A stretch of DNA of 59,835 bases, from the sequence record PZ445421.1; one strand, 5' to 3'. This document shows positions 32,703-54,470 of the stretch, one piece after another. Position 1 is the first letter of the stretch. Each line of letters begins with the position of its first letter. The DNA comes from a phage. The notes beneath the pieces were generated by a model. The model was not told the DNA's origin. It saw nothing but the letters and a program-made list of their open reading frames with translations, and searched no databases. The position numbers and the translations under genes were made by a program.

Positions 32703-33527
32703 TTACTCTGCAGATTTCTGAGACGGAATTTCTACGTTAGCGGCCGCCTGTGCAATATTAGCAGGTACTGGAACGGATACGCGACCAGTAATGCCCATGT
32801 ATTTTTTCCAGCGAGCATATTCCGCTTTAACGTTCGCTTCGTTCAGGCCTTTGTCCAGTGCAACAGGCAGAACGTAGCTGATCGGCGCAGTCTGACCAAG
32901 CTCCAGGGTGACAGCGTCAAAGATATCCCATGCAGCACGACACAGAGTACCGACACCAGGCTTACGAATACCGTTCTGTTCAGGCTCTTTCTTATCTTCG
33001 CGTTCTGCTGCTTTACGAGCACGCTCTTCGTCCTGCAGACGTTTCTTCTCAGCGCGTTCTGCGTCACGTTTCGCTTTTTCAGCGGCCTTAGTGGCTTCGC
33101 GGGCAGCGGATACACGGCCTTTAACATCTTTCAGGGTGGATTCAATGCTAGAAACCAGATCTTCAGATGCTGCAACGGCAGTTTTCAGTTGATCATTGTC
33201 TTTAATTTTACGTGCGGCCGCTTTGACAGCTTTCAGACCTTCTTTAGCGGTCTTCAGTTGAGCTGTAACTACGCCTTCAACTGCTTTAACTTCGTCCAGC
33301 AATGAACCTTCGTTCAGGGTCGCGAACTGTTCTTTAACAGCGGACACAGCACCTTCGATCACATTGTAACCGTCAGTGGCTTCGTTCAATGCGGCGTCAA
33401 CTTTAGCCTGCAATTCACGTGCTGCTTTTTCTTCAGCTTCACGTTTTTTCTTTGCTTCAGCTTCTTTTGCTGCTTTCTTTGCAGCTTCTTCTGCTTCCAG
33501 TTGTTCTGGAGTTTTCTCTTTAGCCAT
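32703..33527 (-). CDS. Lys/Ala/Glu-rich coiled-coil protein (274 aa), function unknown
   Basis: Long ORF with clear ATG and dedicated promoter; strongly low-complexity KAE composition. Confidence 0.55.
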   Translation of the reverse strand: MAKEKTPEQLEAEEAAKKAAKEAEAKKKREAEEKAARELQAKVDAALNEATDGYNVIEGAVSAVKEQFATLNEGSLLDEVKAVEGVVTAQLKTAKEGLKAVKAAARKIKDNDQLKTAVAASEDLVSSIESTLKDVKGRVSAAREATKAAEKAKRDAERAEKKRLQDEERARKAAEREDKKEPEQNGIRKPGVGTLCRAAWDIFDAVTLELGQTAPISYVLPVALDKGLNEANVKAEYARWKKYMGITGRVSVPVPANIAQAAANVEIPSQKSAE

Positions 33528-34594: not shown

Positions 34595-36598
34595 TCAAAA
34601 CGGAATGTCGTCATCAAAGTCTGGTGGTAGTTCTTTACCGTTACCAGTAAGAATAGGTTGATTAGACGTAGAATGCAATACTGTCGTACGGGAATCAGTC
34701 TGCTCATCTTCATCAAACTTATTCGTATAACTGCTACCAAACTGGGACAGACCATTCATTGCTGCAATTTGTACAACCGGACGTTCGTTTGTTGCTTCTT
34801 TCTTACCGAATTCACTACCATCATAACAACTATTCAACACTTCTGGGAACTTACCCTTCAAGTTGACATAAATGTGCGTCGGTACACGAAGCTGGCTGAC
34901 CACATTGAGAGCTTCGTCAATGTTGGCTGGGATTGCCAAGCTGCAATGCTCACGCCACCAGTTACGCGCTTTCTTGCCTGCAAAACCAGTATGGAACAGA
35001 CAAATATATTGTTGAATAGTTTGTGAGCCACAAAGATAATCGACACGAAGTGTTGGTGGCTTAGAACGGTCACCCCTGTTCTCGTGGCGGTAGTAACTCA
35101 CCATATCAACTTTCAACACTTCAGTAACTGGTAGATCATTCTTGATAATAGCTTTCGTACTAGCACTCGCCATTAGTTTCTTCTCAAAAGTAAACTCATG
35201 ACCACAATAACCAGCACGGCACGCTTTATTATTTGTAATGGTATAACCTAACCCTTGCAGATAAAGTATTTCTTCATGTGACATACTGCTTGTGTCGAAT
35301 GGTTTTAACCCACCGCAATAGCGAACCGACGCATGGTTCCAGGTTTTACATACCGGGCATTCTTTAACAGGTGCAGCGGACTTTCCTTTCTGCCCTGGGC
35401 GCTTAGGAATTACAGGGTCGTTAATAGGCCCAAGGCGTCTTGTGTTACCTGCATAATCCAATACAAGACAGTTCTGTTTATGCGAAGCGGAGATAGCTTG
35501 CAAACGACCTTCCGTTGTGGTCAAATCAAAACCATCAGCATAATCAGGTCGAGTACCACGTCCAAGCATCTGAACCCACAAACGGGAAGATTGAGATGGT
35601 CGCATACCGATTATCAAGTCAAGACCCGGATGGTCAAAACCTGTCGTTAATACGTTGTTGTTCGCTATTGCCTGCAAACGACCAGCTTTAAAGTCAATAA
35701 GGTACTGGTCACGCAAGGCTTTCGGTGTATCGCCAGTTACAACTTCACAACTAATACCGCGCTCATTAAGATAGTCTTTTACATCCTTTGCATGGTCCAC
35801 ACCAGCACAAAAGATAAGCCAACTCATCCTATTCTCTTCTTCCGCAATACTAATCGCATCATCTAACAAATGACGTGTTACATCAGGGTCGTTTACAACT
35901 TTCTGAAGTTCACTTTCAATGAACTCACCGCCTCGAGTATGAACACCACTTACATCATACTCTTTCTTTGTTTTACGTGGTACTAACGGAACCAGATAAC
36001 CTTCATCAATAAACCAGTTGAAGCACTCTACGGTACACGCGTTAAATACGATTTCATCAAATAAAGCGTTAGGCGCATAATCATCTTTGATAATAGAACC
36101 AAAACCAAGACGCCAACTCGTAGCAGTAAGACCGATAATCTTTAGATATGGATTCTTTTCACGAATGTGCGCAAAGAATTTCTGATAACTTGTTTGTTGA
36201 TTTGGACTAATAAGGTCACATTCGTCAACTATAATAATATCAACGTCCTCAAAATATTTAGCTTGTTTTGCAACAGACTGAATACCTGCGAACGTTATCA
36301 TTGCGTTCTTATCTTTGCGACCCATACCAGCACTATAAATACCAGTCGGTGCTTCAGGCCACAACTTTTTAAATTTATCGTGGTTCTGGTCTATCAATTC
36401 TTTTACGTGAGTAATTACCATCATGCGGGTACTACCCCAATTATCGTGAATTGTCTTTAATAGACCAGCAATTACAAGGGACTTACCAGTCCCCGTAGGC
36501 AACAAGATAACAGGATTTCCTGACTTTTCACCGTGATTGATGAAATAGCGCAATGTACTGTTTACAGCTTCTTGCTGATAATCACGTAGTTTGAACAT
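34595..36598 (-). CDS. SF2 DNA helicase (DEAD/DEAH-like) with C-terminal Cys-rich region
   Basis: Motif I 'LLPTGTGKS', motif II 'DECD', motif III 'TATS', motif VI 'QMLGRGTR'. Confidence 0.8.
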   Translation of the reverse strand: MFKLRDYQQEAVNSTLRYFINHGEKSGNPVILLPTGTGKSLVIAGLLKTIHDNWGSTRMMVITHVKELIDQNHDKFKKLWPEAPTGIYSAGMGRKDKNAMITFAGIQSVAKQAKYFEDVDIIIVDECDLISPNQQTSYQKFFAHIREKNPYLKIIGLTATSWRLGFGSIIKDDYAPNALFDEIVFNACTVECFNWFIDEGYLVPLVPRKTKKEYDVSGVHTRGGEFIESELQKVVNDPDVTRHLLDDAISIAEEENRMSWLIFCAGVDHAKDVKDYLNERGISCEVVTGDTPKALRDQYLIDFKAGRLQAIANNNVLTTGFDHPGLDLIIGMRPSQSSRLWVQMLGRGTRPDYADGFDLTTTEGRLQAISASHKQNCLVLDYAGNTRRLGPINDPVIPKRPGQKGKSAAPVKECPVCKTWNHASVRYCGGLKPFDTSSMSHEEILYLQGLGYTITNNKACRAGYCGHEFTFEKKLMASASTKAIIKNDLPVTEVLKVDMVSYYRHENRGDRSKPPTLRVDYLCGSQTIQQYICLFHTGFAGKKARNWWREHCSLAIPANIDEALNVVSQLRVPTHIYVNLKGKFPEVLNSCYDGSEFGKKEATNERPVVQIAAMNGLSQFGSSYTNKFDEDEQTDSRTTVLHSTSNQPILTGNGKELPPDFDDDIPF

Positions 36599-37549: not shown

Positions 37550-37611
37550 ATCATAATCCTATATAGAAAAATAAAGCTCCCGGAGGAGCTTTATTATAAC
37601 ATGATTTTTAA

Positions 37612-38517
37612 TTACTGTGCAGAGTCATTGCCTTCAGTGGAACGTTTCCACGGTGGAGTCTTGGTCTGAGCTGCTTTAGCGATATCGTCCTGCACTTCAG
37701 GTTCTGCATGGTTAGCAGTACCAGTGTTTTGAGCTTGAGTTTGTGGTTGCTCTACTCCAGGCTGTACCTTCTGAGTTGCCCAGTTAGGCTGCTGTGGCTG
37801 CTGCGCACCAGTAGCCCACGGTTGGGATTGTGCCGCACTGTTAAAATCAACTGTTCCAGACTGCTGCTGTTGCTGTACCGGCTGTTGCGGCTGTTGTTGC
37901 TGCTGCGGTTGCTGGAACCACTGAGTCTGAGGTTGTTGCTGCTGTTGCTGAGGCTGCTGCCCAAATGCGCCCGGGAAACCCTGCTGCGATTGCTGCTGTG
38001 GTTGCTGAGTACCACCGAACGCACCGCCACCAAATGCTGGAGATTGTGCTGCCGCTGCCGGAGTTGATTTAGGTAGGTTAGCCATATCCGCCTTAGTTGC
38101 GTATACAACACCTTCCATATTATCAATCGCTTGATAAATCTGAGGTTCGTTGTTTGGCTCATAGCCAGGTTGCTGACGAACTTTCACTTTCAGGTTAAAC
38201 GGAATACCGTGCAGTTGTTCAGTATCGTTCCAAACTGGAACTTTAACAGCACGAGACAGCTCTGCCAGTTCTTCCATTGCAATCTGTACAGCGACAGGGT
38301 TCGCGTTCTTGACGTTGTAACCGCCAAACATCACACGACCAGCAAAATCACCCTGTATAATCTTAAACTGAAGATTCAGACGCGCACCGCCTGGAGTTTT
38401 AGTCGGTTTGATTTCAGAGTTTACAATCTGAACAACATACCAACCAGCGGGCATCAAGCTGTTGTGTTGACGCTCTGCGTGCTGTCCAGCGTTAAATTGC
38501 GTTCCTAAACCGGCCAT
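37612..38517 (-). CDS. putative ssDNA-binding/annealing accessory protein with Gln/Pro-rich low-complexity linker
   Basis: 301 aa; N-terminal globular part, then ~100 aa of Q/P repeats; start overlaps stop of the ATPase gene. Confidence 0.4.
   Translation of the reverse strand: MAGLGTQFNAGQHAERQHNSLMPAGWYVVQIVNSEIKPTKTPGGARLNLQFKIIQGDFAGRVMFGGYNVKNANPVAVQIAMEELAELSRAVKVPVWNDTEQLHGIPFNLKVKVRQQPGYEPNNEPQIYQAIDNMEGVVYATKADMANLPKSTPAAAAQSPAFGGGAFGGTQQPQQQSQQGFPGAFGQQPQQQQQQPQTQWFQQPQQQQQPQQPVQQQQQSGTVDFNSAAQSQPWATGAQQPQQPNWATQKVQPGVEQPQTQAQNTGTANHAEPEVQDDIAKAAQTKTPPWKRSTEGNDSAQ
37861..38010. repeat. CTG/TTG trinucleotide-rich tract (encodes poly-Gln/Pro on the minus strand)
   Basis: Read directly: ctgctgctgttgctg...gctgttgttgctgctgcggttgctg... 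Confidence 0.6.
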
Positions 38518-39263
38518 TATTGTACCCCTTTGATTTTGTTAATGATTACACCGAGATGTGGATATTCCATCTGTTCTAACGAACCAGAACGATCTTTACA
38601 TACATTTGACAGATCTGGTCTTGTCAGCAGATAACGAAAATCTGCTTGAGTATTTTGGTCTTTACCAACACTAATCTTGAACACTTCGTCAAAAAAGTAT
38701 GGTAATTCTGGACCTAATTTTGCACCAGGCATAGAAGGACCATAAGACGTAATACCTGTTAACTCGTCCTTATTACGGGACATTTTAGCTGCCATGTATA
38801 CGTTAAGTCCAGGAATATCTCGAAAAGCACGAACCAAAGTTTGCATCTTCTCAATGAGATCCCCATAAGCCTGACGCGGATCTTTCACAGTACGCTTCGC
38901 ATTGTTAAGGCACTTTTCAGCAATCTCAGTAAGTGAATCCAGCGCAAGAGACTGAAAGCGCGGTAAACCATCTTCACCTACAGGGTTGTTTGCAGGGTTA
39001 GTCGCCCAAACGTAAGCCTGCTCCACATCCTGGATATTTTCAACCGTGATGGTTGGAATATCGTAACAGATATCTGGTCTGTTTTCACCAAACACACGAG
39101 CAATGTTATTCGGTGTTAAAGACAGAAGCCCAGACTCTGCAGAAATCAGCAACGGTCTTGGAAGAGTTGCTGTAAGCATGGTCTTACCCATACCGGATTC
39201 ACCATACACAAGCATCTTGACACCAGTGTCCAAAACTGCCTGCGCGGTAGTTGTAAATTGCAT
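38517..39263 (-). CDS. RecA-like/AAA ATPase (Sak4-type recombination ATPase candidate)
   Basis: Walker A 'GESGMGKT' near the N-terminus; 248 aa; adjacent to the SSB-like gene. Confidence 0.55.
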   Translation of the reverse strand: MQFTTTAQAVLDTGVKMLVYGESGMGKTMLTATLPRPLLISAESGLLSLTPNNIARVFGENRPDICYDIPTITVENIQDVEQAYVWATNPANNPVGEDGLPRFQSLALDSLTEIAEKCLNNAKRTVKDPRQAYGDLIEKMQTLVRAFRDIPGLNVYMAAKMSRNKDELTGITSYGPSMPGAKLGPELPYFFDEVFKISVGKDQNTQADFRYLLTRPDLSNVCKDRSGSLEQMEYPHLGVIINKIKGVQ

Positions 39264-39327: not shown

Positions 39328-40275
39328 TTATTCACTAATATCTGTTGGATCACGGAAACTTTGATGCGTGGGAATACGCAATTTGTCTTTCATACCGTGA
39401 GCAAAGAATTTCCATTTAGAAATCTTCCCAATGAATTCATCAGGATGCTCAAAATAATATTTACGTTCTTCGTGCGTAAGACGACCAGCACCTACACGCA
39501 TCTCTTGCCCGACTTCAATAAGATCTTCAAGGCCTTCTGGTACTGTAAGCACACGTACATCAAATGAGCCAACCATACCATTTGGAATCATATTTTCCTG
39601 ATGGGATGAACGGAACGTCTGTCCTAATTCGTTAATCTGAGCCTCATTTGCATTGGTGCAACCTTCAATGATACGAATGATCTCGCCTTCACCATCAGTG
39701 AAACGTTTAATGCGGAGATAACCGCCTTCACGCTGCGTACTACGGCCCCATTTATATTTCGCTTCAAGGTCACGAATAATAACGCCTTCGTATCCCATAT
39801 CGAGCCAAATATTTTCCCACTCCAGCAGTTCTTGTTCGTTGTTGACCACATACAACGGCACAAGTTTCACGTCCATCAACTCGCCGTTAGCGTGGCATTC
39901 GTCCACGTACTTCTTGAGCATATCATAACGCTCTTTGTACGGTAGATGTGCAACATTTGGTTCGCACAAATCGAACACATGCCACGTCCAAACGTATTCA
40001 CCTTCAATTTTAGATGTTGCACTACTTGTTTTGCGACATAAGTCAAAGTCCGTTTCGTCCCCAACGGCAAGCTCACCGTCCATACCATCATAGATGGGAG
40101 ATTCAAATACCTTTGCGACCTGCTTATTTGCAAAAGATTTAAGACTTCGTCCAACAAGCTCCCCAAACGGTTTCATCCCACGAACGCCGTCAATTTTAGG
40201 CATAATACCTACAGGATATTTCTGTTTAGCTGAATCCCAATCTGTTGCTAGAAAAGGACGAAATTTTTTAGTCAT
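39328..40275 (-). CDS. ATP-dependent DNA ligase
   Basis: Adenylation motif I 'MPKIDGVRG' (KxDGxR); ATG 40275 with SD 'GGAGGG' (track start 40290). Confidence 0.85.
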   Translation of the reverse strand: MTKKFRPFLATDWDSAKQKYPVGIMPKIDGVRGMKPFGELVGRSLKSFANKQVAKVFESPIYDGMDGELAVGDETDFDLCRKTSSATSKIEGEYVWTWHVFDLCEPNVAHLPYKERYDMLKKYVDECHANGELMDVKLVPLYVVNNEQELLEWENIWLDMGYEGVIIRDLEAKYKWGRSTQREGGYLRIKRFTDGEGEIIRIIEGCTNANEAQINELGQTFRSSHQENMIPNGMVGSFDVRVLTVPEGLEDLIEVGQEMRVGAGRLTHEERKYYFEHPDEFIGKISKWKFFAHGMKDKLRIPTHQSFRDPTDISE

Positions 40276-40801
40276 CTGAACCCTCCACATGCAAATTCGT
40301 CATGTATAGATTTTCTCATATCATCTAACCATTCTGAAGCAAGAGCTAAACCTTCATCCGTAAATGGAAACACCTTCTGTTTACGTTTACCATTAACTTG
40401 AATTGTGGCGCACCAACGCTCATAACCATTATTGTTTACAAACCGAGATACACCTTTTACACCGGAAGTGTTGTTAGCCTGAATAATTTATTACAGTTAT
40501 TTTGGCTTGATGTGGCTTTTCTAATATTACACCATCTGTTATCAAAACCTTTCCCGTTTTTATGGTCTATTTCAACTTGAGGATCTTCCCCTGTCATCCA
40601 TTTCCAAATGACCCTGTGAACAAAGTAATCGCGTCCTTTAAGACCTACATACTTATAATTTAGACCATAATACCCAGCTTCCGCTCCAGCAACTCTTCTC
40701 CGCCAACTTTTACGCCAACTAAGAATGCCAGTTTCCGCGTTATAATCCAATAACTCTTTTAATTCCTGTTCACTATAAGGAATAGGTTTAAATCGAGCCA
40801 T
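40272..40801 (-). pseudogene. HNH-AP2 homing endonuclease split across two reading frames
   Basis: HNH frame 40457..40801 ('EIDHKNGKGFDNRWCNIRKATSSQN'); the AP2-like part ('NNTSGVKGVS...NGYERWCATIQVNGKRK...') is in another frame from 40487 to a TGA overlapping the ligase ATG. Confidence 0.5.
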
Positions 40802-54208: not shown

Positions 54209-54390
54209 GGTGTTCCCCTTCGGGTGAGGCGGGCGCGGAACCCGTGTCCCGCTTAAAAACCCCCTTTACCCTACGCAGTTATAATAGGACAACTGGGTAT
54301 CAGATGCAACTATTATCTGCATTATTTTAGAACTTTTTTAGTTGTGTTTCGTAATAATAACATCCGGTACTATGCGGTAGATGGTGTGCC

Positions 54391-54470
54391 GGAAATACCA
54401 GGTAGCGCGAGCGTGTCGAAAATACCAGGTAACAGCACGCGCCGAAAATACCAGGTAGCACATACATAGA
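54391..54470. repeat. iteron array: three direct repeats with 26-bp period (core GAAA(A)TACCAGGTARC)
   Basis: Units begin at 54392, 54418 and 54444; read directly. Confidence 0.7.

Follow-up and report, generated by a model that had tools for sequence, protein, structure and literature searches.

Which functions are encoded by two overlapping genes in the replication region of a phage genome, and what is the role of the long glutamine- and proline-rich stretch in one of their products? This question is raised by positions 37,612 to 39,263 of a window of 59,835 nucleotides (the whole stretch of DNA that was analysed; sequence record PZ445421.1), which is 100% identical to Escherichia phage FritzHoffmann (Bas20). 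Of the two genes, bas20_0043 and bas20_0042, one is at present annotated as "hypothetical protein" in Bas20 and the other as "RecA-like ATPase", and RefSeq already names their orthologues in phage 9g Sak4 and SSB. The pair is a new example of an already known Sak4 plus SSB recombination/replication module in a known E. coli phage; this settles how both Bas20 genes should be annotated and does not overturn current understanding of such modules. The features of the pair are as follows.

38517..39263, minus strand: gene for a Sak4-like ATPase with a RecA/Rad51 core, 747 nt, 248 amino acids (bas20_0043)
39180..39203, minus strand: Walker A motif GESGMGKT, residues 21-28, read from the translation
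38937..38951, minus strand: Walker B-like strand SLALD, residues 105-109, followed by S110 and E113, placed by alignment
38515..38519, minus strand: TAATG junction, in which the Sak4 stop and the DUF669 start overlap by 1 nt at base 38517
37612..38517, minus strand: gene for a DUF669 single-stranded-DNA-binding protein, 301 amino acids (bas20_0042), matching Pfam DUF669 and PHROG 6015
38113..38457, minus strand: predicted OB-fold domain, residues ~21-135, from the predicted fold

The original prediction placed a Walker A ATPase at 38517..39263 and its partner at 37612..38517, both on the minus strand and overlapping at 38517, and these gene calls and coordinates are correct. A Shine-Dalgarno-like run, AAAGGGG, lies about 8 nt 5' of the TAATG junction. 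The cognate ssb gene thus adjoins sak4 with a 1-nt overlap, and the same Sak4-then-SSB order is found in HK620 (4-nt overlap), in N4 (gp44-gp45) and in all six distant contigs compared, metagenomic or phage, where the two genes are adjacent on the same strand. Genes for primase, ligase, RNase H, helicase and polymerase surround the module. A plus-strand open reading frame (37708-38067) and an out-of-frame minus-strand one (37752-38162) were rejected as by-products of the repeat in the DUF669 gene, whose annotated frame is supported by the finding that indels in the repeat tract are in-frame only.

Regarding the upstream gene, its product matches Pfam AAA_24 with E 6.8e-23 and a score of 82 bits (cut-off 27), and PHROG 124 with E 1e-53. 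Residues G24, G26, K27 and T28 of the Walker A motif show no variation across 49 homologues, nor do D109, S110 and E113 at the Walker B-like strand (alignment A2). The closest solved structure is the filament-forming Sak4 recombinase of S. aureus phage 52A (PDB 8rc5); RAD51 paralogues and RecA come next, not AAA+ loaders. A sequence search of the PDB with the ATPase returned P-loop noise matches only, and NCBIfam gave a single match, "phage nucleotide-binding protein", below its cut-off. The upstream gene is a Sak4-type ATPase with the RecA/Rad51 core only.

Residues 14-116 of the downstream gene's product match Pfam DUF669 (PF05037) with E 7.9e-9 and a score of 36.2 bits (cut-off 21), the protein matches PHROG 6015, "single strand DNA binding protein", with E 7.5e-94, and the structural model predicts an OB-fold DNA-binding domain. 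The protein lies outside the canonical SSB family: it has no match to the Pfam SSB family at E<=0.01, and tblastn with the E. coli SSB found no match to its OB domain in the window. PDB searches with the protein and with its family profile failed to retrieve any relative of the DUF669 domain and gave low-complexity matches alone, such as the ZipA linker, and NCBIfam holds no model that matches the protein. A fold search of BFVD retrieved DUF669 relatives only, HK620 SSB and N4 SSB being absent from the top 50. PrgE of pCF10 (PDB 8s4s) is 13% identical to the DUF669 protein, shows no sequence relationship to it by profile search and, unlike it, carries no long Q/P tail. The same tblastn query found no second, canonical SSB in the window, matching only a helicase tip and, non-significantly, linker sequence; the DUF669 protein is probably the phage's own SSB and apparently its sole one.

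Biochemical work on related systems provides the basis for assigning functions to the pair. In HK620, a DUF669-type SSB binds ssDNA and stimulates annealing by Sak4 as well as recombineering, the stimulation requires the last six residues of the SSB (NDYPPF), and Sak4 itself anneals DNA in vitro (Hutinet et al. 2018, PMC5928155). Replication in S. aureus phages needs Sak4 and its cognate Ssb (PMC5499656), and DUF669 has been tied to N4 SSB by HHsearch (PMC4889955). From these three studies, the DUF669 protein of Bas20 probably binds ssDNA, and by analogy with HK620 Sak4, the sole member known to do so, the Bas20 Sak4 may perform ATP-dependent ssDNA binding and annealing. In HK620, as in Bas20, sak4 (HkaL) lies upstream of and overlaps ssb (HkaK/"Abc1", described as DUF669), the ATPase matches both AAA_24 and PHROG 124, and the SSB combines a globular N-terminal domain with a flexible tail bearing an end motif of Pro-Pro-Phe/Trp. 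However, the HK620 SSB has 195 aa with a short tail free of any Q/P tract, whereas the Bas20 tail is ~150 aa long and Q/P-rich; the NDYPPF tip of HK620 is truly C-terminal, whereas 11 residues follow PPW in Bas20; and HK620 is temperate and carries abc2, whereas Bas20 is virulent and has its own replisome.

Sequence comparison did not establish homology to the SSBs studied by experiment. BLASTP of the Bas20 pair against HK620 SSB and Sak4 gave no useful pairwise similarity, and hhalign of the DUF669 protein with HK620 SSB gave E 0.23 for the full-length alignment and E 0.013 at 3% probability for the N-domain profile. HK620 SSB has no match to Pfam DUF669 at E<=0.01 and belongs to PHROG 743, unlike the Bas20 SSB (PHROG 6015), and NCBI names its relatives "DUF669 domain-containing". 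N4 SSB and the DUF669 protein share, by hhalign and hmmsearch, a short match of 25-45 residues (hhalign E 0.0012, probability 19%, 25 columns) with the local motif G-h-h-x-I-x-SE-x-K-x-TK-x-G-x-G. The link to HK620 and N4 SSB is therefore drawn from the literature and from the NCBI naming. N4 also has the adjacent order seen in Bas20, with a Sak4-like gp44 followed by gp45 (N4 SSB), but in N4 the tail of the SSB (…AKSLFGKK) is neutral or basic, with no Q/P tract and no PPW. The Sak4 of S. aureus phage 52A (PDB 8rc5) has ~10% sequence identity to that of Bas20.

The C-terminal half of the DUF669 protein contains the following features.

37615..38067, minus strand: predicted disordered C-terminal tail, residues 151-301, AF2 pLDDT ~38-51 throughout, Q/P/G/A-rich
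37861..38010, minus strand: Gln/Pro core tract, residues 170-219, an imperfect CAG/CAA/CCN repeat (CTG/TTG on the plus strand)
37796..37993, minus strand: six in-frame indel hot spots (near 37993, 37945, 37912, 37879, 37868-37875 and 37796), from MAFFT of 13 genomes
37816..37851, minus strand: conserved island A VDFNSAAQSQPW, residues 223-234, conservation 0.54 vs 0.39 in the flanking linker
37744..37791, minus strand: conserved island B QPNWATQKVQPGVEQP, residues 243-258, conservation 0.63
37645..37689, minus strand: conserved island C DDIAKAAQTKTPPWK, residues 277-291, with the Pro-Pro-Trp tip at 37648-37656

A linker of almost pure Q/P over ~100 aa had been proposed. The Q/P richness holds, but the purity and length do not: the core covers ~50 aa with 76% Q+P, CAG/CAA making up 31 of its 50 codons (62% Gln) and CCN 7 (14% Pro), and in the wider region of residues 155-250 Q accounts for 41% and P for 11%, G, F, A, T and W being scattered through it. 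The enrichment is far beyond chance, since the best 54-aa window, at the tract, reaches a Q+P fraction of 0.70 (z ~12 against all frames of the window) against a background mean of 0.08 (sd 0.05; all stop-free six-frame windows of 54 aa) and 0.39 for the next best elsewhere. That second-richest window (~22638, minus strand) falls within no ORF of at least 80 aa and was dismissed, as were terminator-like matches on the plus strand inside the tract, which are repeat artefacts. At the DNA level, the 150-bp trinucleotide tract lies where it had been placed, at 37861-38010, but is an imperfect, cryptic repeat rather than a regular one: no perfect tandem repeat exceeds 18 nt (2 x CAACAGCCG), no more than three identical codons stand in a row, and TRF covers just 37861-37914 with 62% matches.

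Length polymorphism between isolates, also predicted, was found. Among 13 sequenced relatives, the sak4 gene normally has 747 nt and the DUF669 gene varies from 906 to 948 nt. In a MAFFT alignment of 13 Nonagvirus genomes, the linker holds 80 of the 85 internal gapped columns, every in-frame indel falls at one of the six hot spots, and each of these sites shows net length differences of 3 to 18 nt, always divisible by 3. Among proteins with identities of at least 82%, linker 1 has between 11 residues (natural variant P0047) and 58, which gives a natural deletion/insertion series usable for studying the effects of linker length on SSB cooperativity and partner recruitment; in Klebsiella-phage relatives it reaches about 170 residues. 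These data could be read as a hypermutable contingency locus, with frequent switching of length or frame within the phage population: nearly every isolate differs in length (10 distinct lengths in 13 genomes, 17 in 47 close relatives), and the indels are positioned inside repeated units. A simple-sequence contingency locus would carry a long perfect repeat and frame-shifting variants, but the repeat is imperfect, as described above, and no frameshifted tract allele was seen among the aligned Nonagvirus genomes; the out-of-frame indels in the 2-kb region occur only at the sak4 3' end of HdK1 and 9g. Furthermore, substitution density peaks in the linker (0.20 vs 0.07-0.11), which fits relaxed constraint. 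A contingency locus is thus very improbable, the microsatellite/phase-variation reading was rejected on the imperfect repeat and the in-frame alleles, and the slippage-prone microsatellite once suggested is a weak idea. Judged from the aligned genomes, the data point to evolutionary length drift rather than rapid switching.

In contrast to the drifting spacer, three islands of the tail are conserved, as judged by column scores across 62 homologues with identity down to ~35%. Island A takes the form [VN]NFxxAAQxQPW in Klebsiella-phage relatives, and P244 and P253 of island B are nearly invariant. In island C, W290 is invariant in the 62 sequences and P288 and P289 are conserved in at least 90% of them. 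The protein ends in ...TKTPPWKRSTEGNDSAQ, so that PPW is followed by 11 more residues and lies in the region where canonical SSBs have their acidic tip; as PPW is not at the extreme C-terminus, any mode of recognition requiring the terminal carboxylate is excluded. The motif is kept across distant relatives even though the neighbouring sequence is unalignable: in a library clustered at 50% identity, 118 of 150 representatives have PW in their final 15 aa, and 92 have PPW. In the distal tail, pLDDT rises above 50 at residues 289-292 only (AF2). A flexible tail (pLDDT <50) with a conserved tip (W290), a putative partner-binding site, is therefore present, and together with the DUF669/PHROG 6015 assignment and the predicted OB fold it supports the SSB-type, partner-recruiting architecture that had been suggested for this protein. 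The contact between Sak4 and SSB may be made through PPW, by analogy with the HK620 tip. A PPW-tipped SSB adjoins a divergent AAA_24 protein in L016, and a DDDVPF-tipped member of the family likewise adjoins an AAA_24 gene; therefore, the type of tip does not obviously track the type of Sak4.

The neighbouring elements are also relevant to the function of the pair.

39328..40290, minus strand: ATP-dependent DNA ligase, directly 5' of sak4 (Pfam DNA_ligase_A_M 3.4e-8; PHROG 114 8.8e-63)
37570..37595, minus strand: intrinsic-terminator-like hairpin and T-run, directly 3' of the DUF669 stop codon
36599..37549, minus strand: Cas4-domain exonuclease (PD-(D/E)XK, Cys-rich), PHROG 1990, E 1.1e-114
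34595..36598, minus strand: SF2 helicase ending in ...PPDFDDDIPF (Pfam ResIII/DEAD/Helicase_C)

The ligase CDS is shorter in the sequence record (876 nt). The hairpin consists of an 11-bp stem, AATAAAGCTCC/GGAGCTTTATT, followed by TTTCTATATA, and bears a terminator annotation in HdSG1 and SP8. The Cas4-domain exonuclease, which occupies the same place 3' of the DUF669 gene in related phages, is a likely end-resection partner.

On the established gene structure, family membership, predicted folds and disorder, length polymorphism, motif conservation and conserved synteny, it is probable, by analogy with HK620, that the two translationally coupled genes constitute a phage single-strand annealing and replication module in which the SSB tail recruits Sak4. 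The ssDNA would arise at replication forks or through the activity of the adjacent Cas4-like exonuclease and SF2 helicase, and would be coated by the DUF669-type OB-fold domain. The tail, ~150 disordered residues comprising a Q/P spacer of freely drifting length, three conserved islands and PPW, would use its tip to bring Sak4 onto the SSB-coated ssDNA. Sak4 would then anneal complementary strands in an ATP-dependent manner, the annealing would serve recombination-dependent replication, repair and concatemer formation, and the adjacent ligase may seal the products. The pair would thus probably drive the recombination-dependent replication of the phage, and Sak4/SSB pairs are candidates for use in recombineering. 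Against this reading stand the homology to the HK620 and N4 SSBs, which sequence comparison failed to confirm, and a tip unlike those of HK620 and E. coli.

In N4, the SSB serves as an activator of E. coli RNA polymerase at late promoters, and the DUF669 protein might mainly or additionally act as such an activator in late transcription, with its Gln-rich tail as the activation region. The literature tie between DUF669 and N4 SSB (PMC4889955), the weak local similarity and a 9g annotation without a phage RNA polymerase speak for this role. However, the similarity is limited to one beta-hairpin motif, the N4 tail has neither Q/P tract nor PPW, some natural variants retain just 11 linker residues, and the gene is coupled to sak4 as part of a replication/recombination operon, all of which make an activator improbable. 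A similarly low probability is given to an AAA_24 ATPase that loads or remodels the replication helicase or primase instead of acting as an annealase, beside a purely replicative SSB. The location of the module among replication genes, the Sak4 requirement of S. aureus phage replication (PMC5499656) and the sub-threshold NCBIfam name are consistent with a loader, but the structural neighbours of the ATPase are recombinases rather than AAA+ loaders, and the HK620 Sak4 anneals DNA in vitro (PMC5928155). The annealing and replication module remains the preferred reading.

The comparison with E. coli SSB leads to a wider and more speculative proposal. Both proteins have three parts, namely an OB domain, a disordered G/Q/P-rich linker with scattered F and W, and a tip, but the E. 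coli tip is the acidic DDDIPF at the extreme C-terminus, whereas the Bas20 SSB has PPW and DDDIPF is found on the phage helicase instead. By tblastn, the helicase tail matches the E. coli SSB tip at E 0.012, and relatives from Seuratvirus, Pseudomonas and Klebsiella likewise have an acidic-[IV]PF tip. A search of the accessible literature on phage proteins that mimic the SSB C-terminal tip gave nothing relevant. It is conceivable, although rather doubtful, that phages of the Queuovirinae type possess a rewired SSB hub, in which an internal PPW on a Q/P linker replaces the carboxylate-dependent acidic-IPF tip and the SF2 helicase bears an exact copy of the tip of bacterial SSB. The QPW and PNW of the islands may be further Trp motifs that make the SSB multivalent. 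If such a hub exists, the helicase would tap into the host's network of SSB partners or rival host SSB for access to it, and PPW would privately recruit the phage Sak4 and replisome. The Q/P linker could then drive cooperative binding or condensates, as has been reported for the E. coli SSB linker (10.1101/797431, 10.1101/2022.01.17.476650, PMC12143593). PPW and the SSB-type helicase tip are thus leads on how a virulent phage may organise its own SSB interactome beside that of the host. The helicase tip itself reads as follows: DFDDDIPF (Nonagvirus), DLDDDIPF (a Pseudomonas phage), DYVPF (Seuratvirus) and DLDVPF (a Klebsiella phage).

The gene pair is of a known kind, a Sak4 and DUF669-SSB module, and is already so named in the 97%-identical phage 9g. 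The 2-kb region shows 100% identity to Escherichia phage FritzHoffmann (Bas20, MZ501068.1; Queuovirinae, Nonagvirus) and 94.6-97.3% identity to 12 other Nonagvirus genomes, including 9g, JenK1, JenP1, JenP2, BRET and SE1. The Bas20 record names the products "RecA-like ATPase" (bas20_0043) and "hypothetical protein" (bas20_0042), and their orthologues in the 9g RefSeq record are "Sak4-like ssDNA annealing protein" and "single strand DNA binding protein, DUF669 family member". Added here are an in-frame length polymorphism of the linker, a conserved Pro-Pro-Trp (PPW) tip, two Trp islands, and an SSB-type tip on the helicase. The features concerned are as follows.

38517..39263, minus strand: ATPase ORF, 248 aa, Walker A GESGMGKT
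37612..38517, minus strand: DUF669 ORF, 301 aa
Base 38517, minus strand: TAATG junction, the base belonging both to the Sak4 stop codon and to the DUF669 start codon
37595-37570: intrinsic-terminator-like hairpin, directly after the DUF669 stop codon
Downstream of the DUF669 gene: Cas4-domain exonuclease (PHROG 1990, E 1.1e-114)
34595-36598, minus strand: SF2 helicase, second gene downstream of the DUF669 gene
39328-40290, minus strand: ATP-dependent ligase, upstream of the Sak4 gene

The original observation of a Walker-A ATPase gene overlapping that of a Q/P protein was real and its interpretation essentially right, the two ORFs sharing base 38517. A Shine-Dalgarno-like AAAGGGG lies upstream of the DUF669 start codon. 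The Q/P richness is evident, with Q+P peaking at 0.70 in a 54-aa window against a mean of 0.08 (sd 0.05) for all stop-free six-frame windows and 0.39 for the next highest 54-aa value elsewhere in the window, whereas "almost pure Q/P" over ~100 aa overstated its purity and extent. Likewise, the proposed trinucleotide repeat is borne out in codon usage (37861-38010, residues 170-219; CAG/CAA in 31 and CCN in 7 of 50 codons) but not in regularity: TRF reports just 37861-37914 with 62% matches, perfect tandem repeats reach at most 18 nt, and runs of identical codons do not exceed three. As a DNA repeat the tract is imperfect.

The Q/P protein scores 36.2 bits against Pfam DUF669 (cut-off 21) and hits PHROG 6015, "single strand DNA binding protein", at E 7.5e-94; its orthologue is the sole protein annotated as SSB in phage 9g. 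No OB-domain match to E. coli SSB was found in the window. In an AlphaFold2 prediction built on 62 homologues, residues ~21-150 reach a pLDDT of 90-98, and the predicted elements (strands 25-38, 45-53 and 62-70, helix 74-91, strands 107-114 and 122-130) follow the order of an OB fold. Residues 155-301 are predicted to be disordered, since their pLDDT is ~38-51. Published HHsearch results connect DUF669 with phage SSBs (PMC4889955; PMC5928155), and it is on these, the common gene order and the predicted fold, rather than on our own sequence comparisons, which gave no clear connection, that the link of this subfamily to the HK620 and N4 SSBs is based.

Within the tail, all 62 homologues, down to ~35% identity, have W290, and conservation is 90% or more at P288 and P289. 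Two more islands, VDFNSAAQSQPW (residues 223-234) and QPNWATQKVQPGVEQP (residues 243-258), exceed the surrounding linker in conservation. The N-terminal domain was also searched against cluster representatives (50% identity clustering), and the tails of the best 150 hits (35-79% identity to the query domain) were surveyed. PW occurs within the last 15 residues in 118 of these 150 and PPW in 92, and a few end in DDDVPF, DDVPY or similar instead. Tail length ranges from 0 to 201 residues; 102 tails have 60 residues or more, and Q+P makes up at least 30% in 74 of these. The family plan is therefore an OB domain, a Q/P spacer whose composition is kept but which is unalignable, and a short aromatic tip. 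Classical SSB has the same plan, with an acidic IPF tip where PPW stands here. PPW must be recognised differently from the classical tip, as 11 residues follow it in the Bas20 protein and 1-12 in relatives.

Length variation of the tract between isolates, the check proposed earlier, was found in 13 genomes, where the DUF669 gene measures 906 (FritzHoffmann, the shortest), 912, 915, 921 (three genomes), 924, 927 (three), 930 (two) and 948 nt. The Sak4 gene is 747 nt, except that 3′-end frameshifts change its annotation in 9g and HdK1. In the DNA alignment, 80 of 85 internal gapped columns fall in the linker, clustering at six hot spots (37796-37993) with net differences that are all multiples of three; variable-site density is also highest in the linker (0.20 vs 0.07-0.11 in flanking coding segments). 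The only two other internal indels lie near the sak4 3′ end: in HdK1 GTTC (4 nt) is inserted, and in 9g 1 nt is missing. These out-of-frame changes (about 38575-38585) may be genuine or may stem from sequencing errors; in both records they affect the C-terminus annotated for Sak4 and how its gene overlaps the SSB gene. The 47 full-length relatives in the database (at least 82% identity) have 17 total lengths of 266-309 aa, single extremes to be read with care as part of the set comes from metagenome assemblies. The first 169 residues are constant in length in all 47, while linker 1 spans 11-58 residues, the middle segment 20-29, and the C-terminal segment 56 or 58. In JenP2, GFPGAFG replaces QQPVQQQ at about 37868-37879 and repeats the upstream QQGFPGAFGQQP motif, suggesting intragenic recombination or conversion in the linker beyond simple slippage. 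Residue 200 (37918-37920) is Trp in FritzHoffmann only (PQTQWFQQ), an additional aromatic inside the Q/P tract, and Gly in 12 of 12 other isolates (QTQGF or QAQGF).

The best-supported reading of the mechanism is by analogy with HK620, where the gene adjoining sak4 is described as DUF669-type and its product is a bona fide tetrameric SSB. The last six residues of that SSB, NDYPPF, are needed both to stimulate Sak4 annealing and to let Sak4 bind ssDNA coated with the SSB (PMC5928155). HK620 shares the overlapping sak4-ssb order seen here, in N4 gp44 (Sak4-like) is followed by gp45 (SSB), and S. aureus phage replication requires Sak4 and its cognate Ssb (PMC5499656). By these precedents, the Bas20 DUF669 protein would coat ssDNA, PPW on its long flexible tether would recruit Sak4, and perhaps further replisome proteins as well, and the recruited Sak4 would anneal complementary strands. 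The Q/P spacer is most likely an entropic tether of weakly constrained exact length; it may also have a role in cooperativity or condensation, for which there are reports on the linker of E. coli SSB (10.1101/797431, 10.1101/2022.01.17.476650, PMC12143593).

The SF2 helicase C-terminus (34598-34621) reads ...PPDFDDDIPF. This tip is the same as that of E. coli SSB (MDFDDDIPF), and tblastn with the E. coli SSB query matched it at E 0.012. Among related phages, the helicase ends in DDPDYVPF in Seuratvirus SLUR63, in DLDDDIPF in a Pseudomonas phage, in EEDLDVPF in a Klebsiella phage and in DGDEPLNF in a metagenomic phage, and the SSBs of these phages end in PPW. The tip is absent in two other relatives looked at, Iggy and L017. 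The tip may mimic that of host SSB, or it may be an acidic tail that binds polymerase, as in T7 gp4; the literature searched contained no description of an SSB-type tip on such phage helicases. A Seuratvirus (Bas22) helicase, described as the homologue of this Queuovirinae helicase, is reported to trigger Retron-Eco11 (PMC12746101).

Pseudomonas phage Iggy and two ~60-kb metagenomic phages, with DUF669 domains just ~40% identical, keep the order AAA_24, DUF669, a ~300-aa gene at the exonuclease position, and helicase. One Seuratvirus, one Pseudomonas phage and one Klebsiella phage keep it too. AAA_24 lies directly upstream of DUF669 in six of six contigs looked up, one with a DDDVPF-tipped member. 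The ligase start codon is uncertain (longest ORF 320 aa; GenBank CDS 876 nt, 291 aa). A 114-aa HNH-type "putative homing endonuclease" ORF (bas20_0045; 40457-40801, minus strand) separates the ligase gene from that of RNase H in FritzHoffmann and is probably a mobile insertion; in phage 9g this position is empty and RNase H directly follows the ligase. Two other short tandem arrays lie at 33414-33488 (24 nt x 3.1, 64% matches) and 54386-54460 (26 nt x 2.8, 82%).
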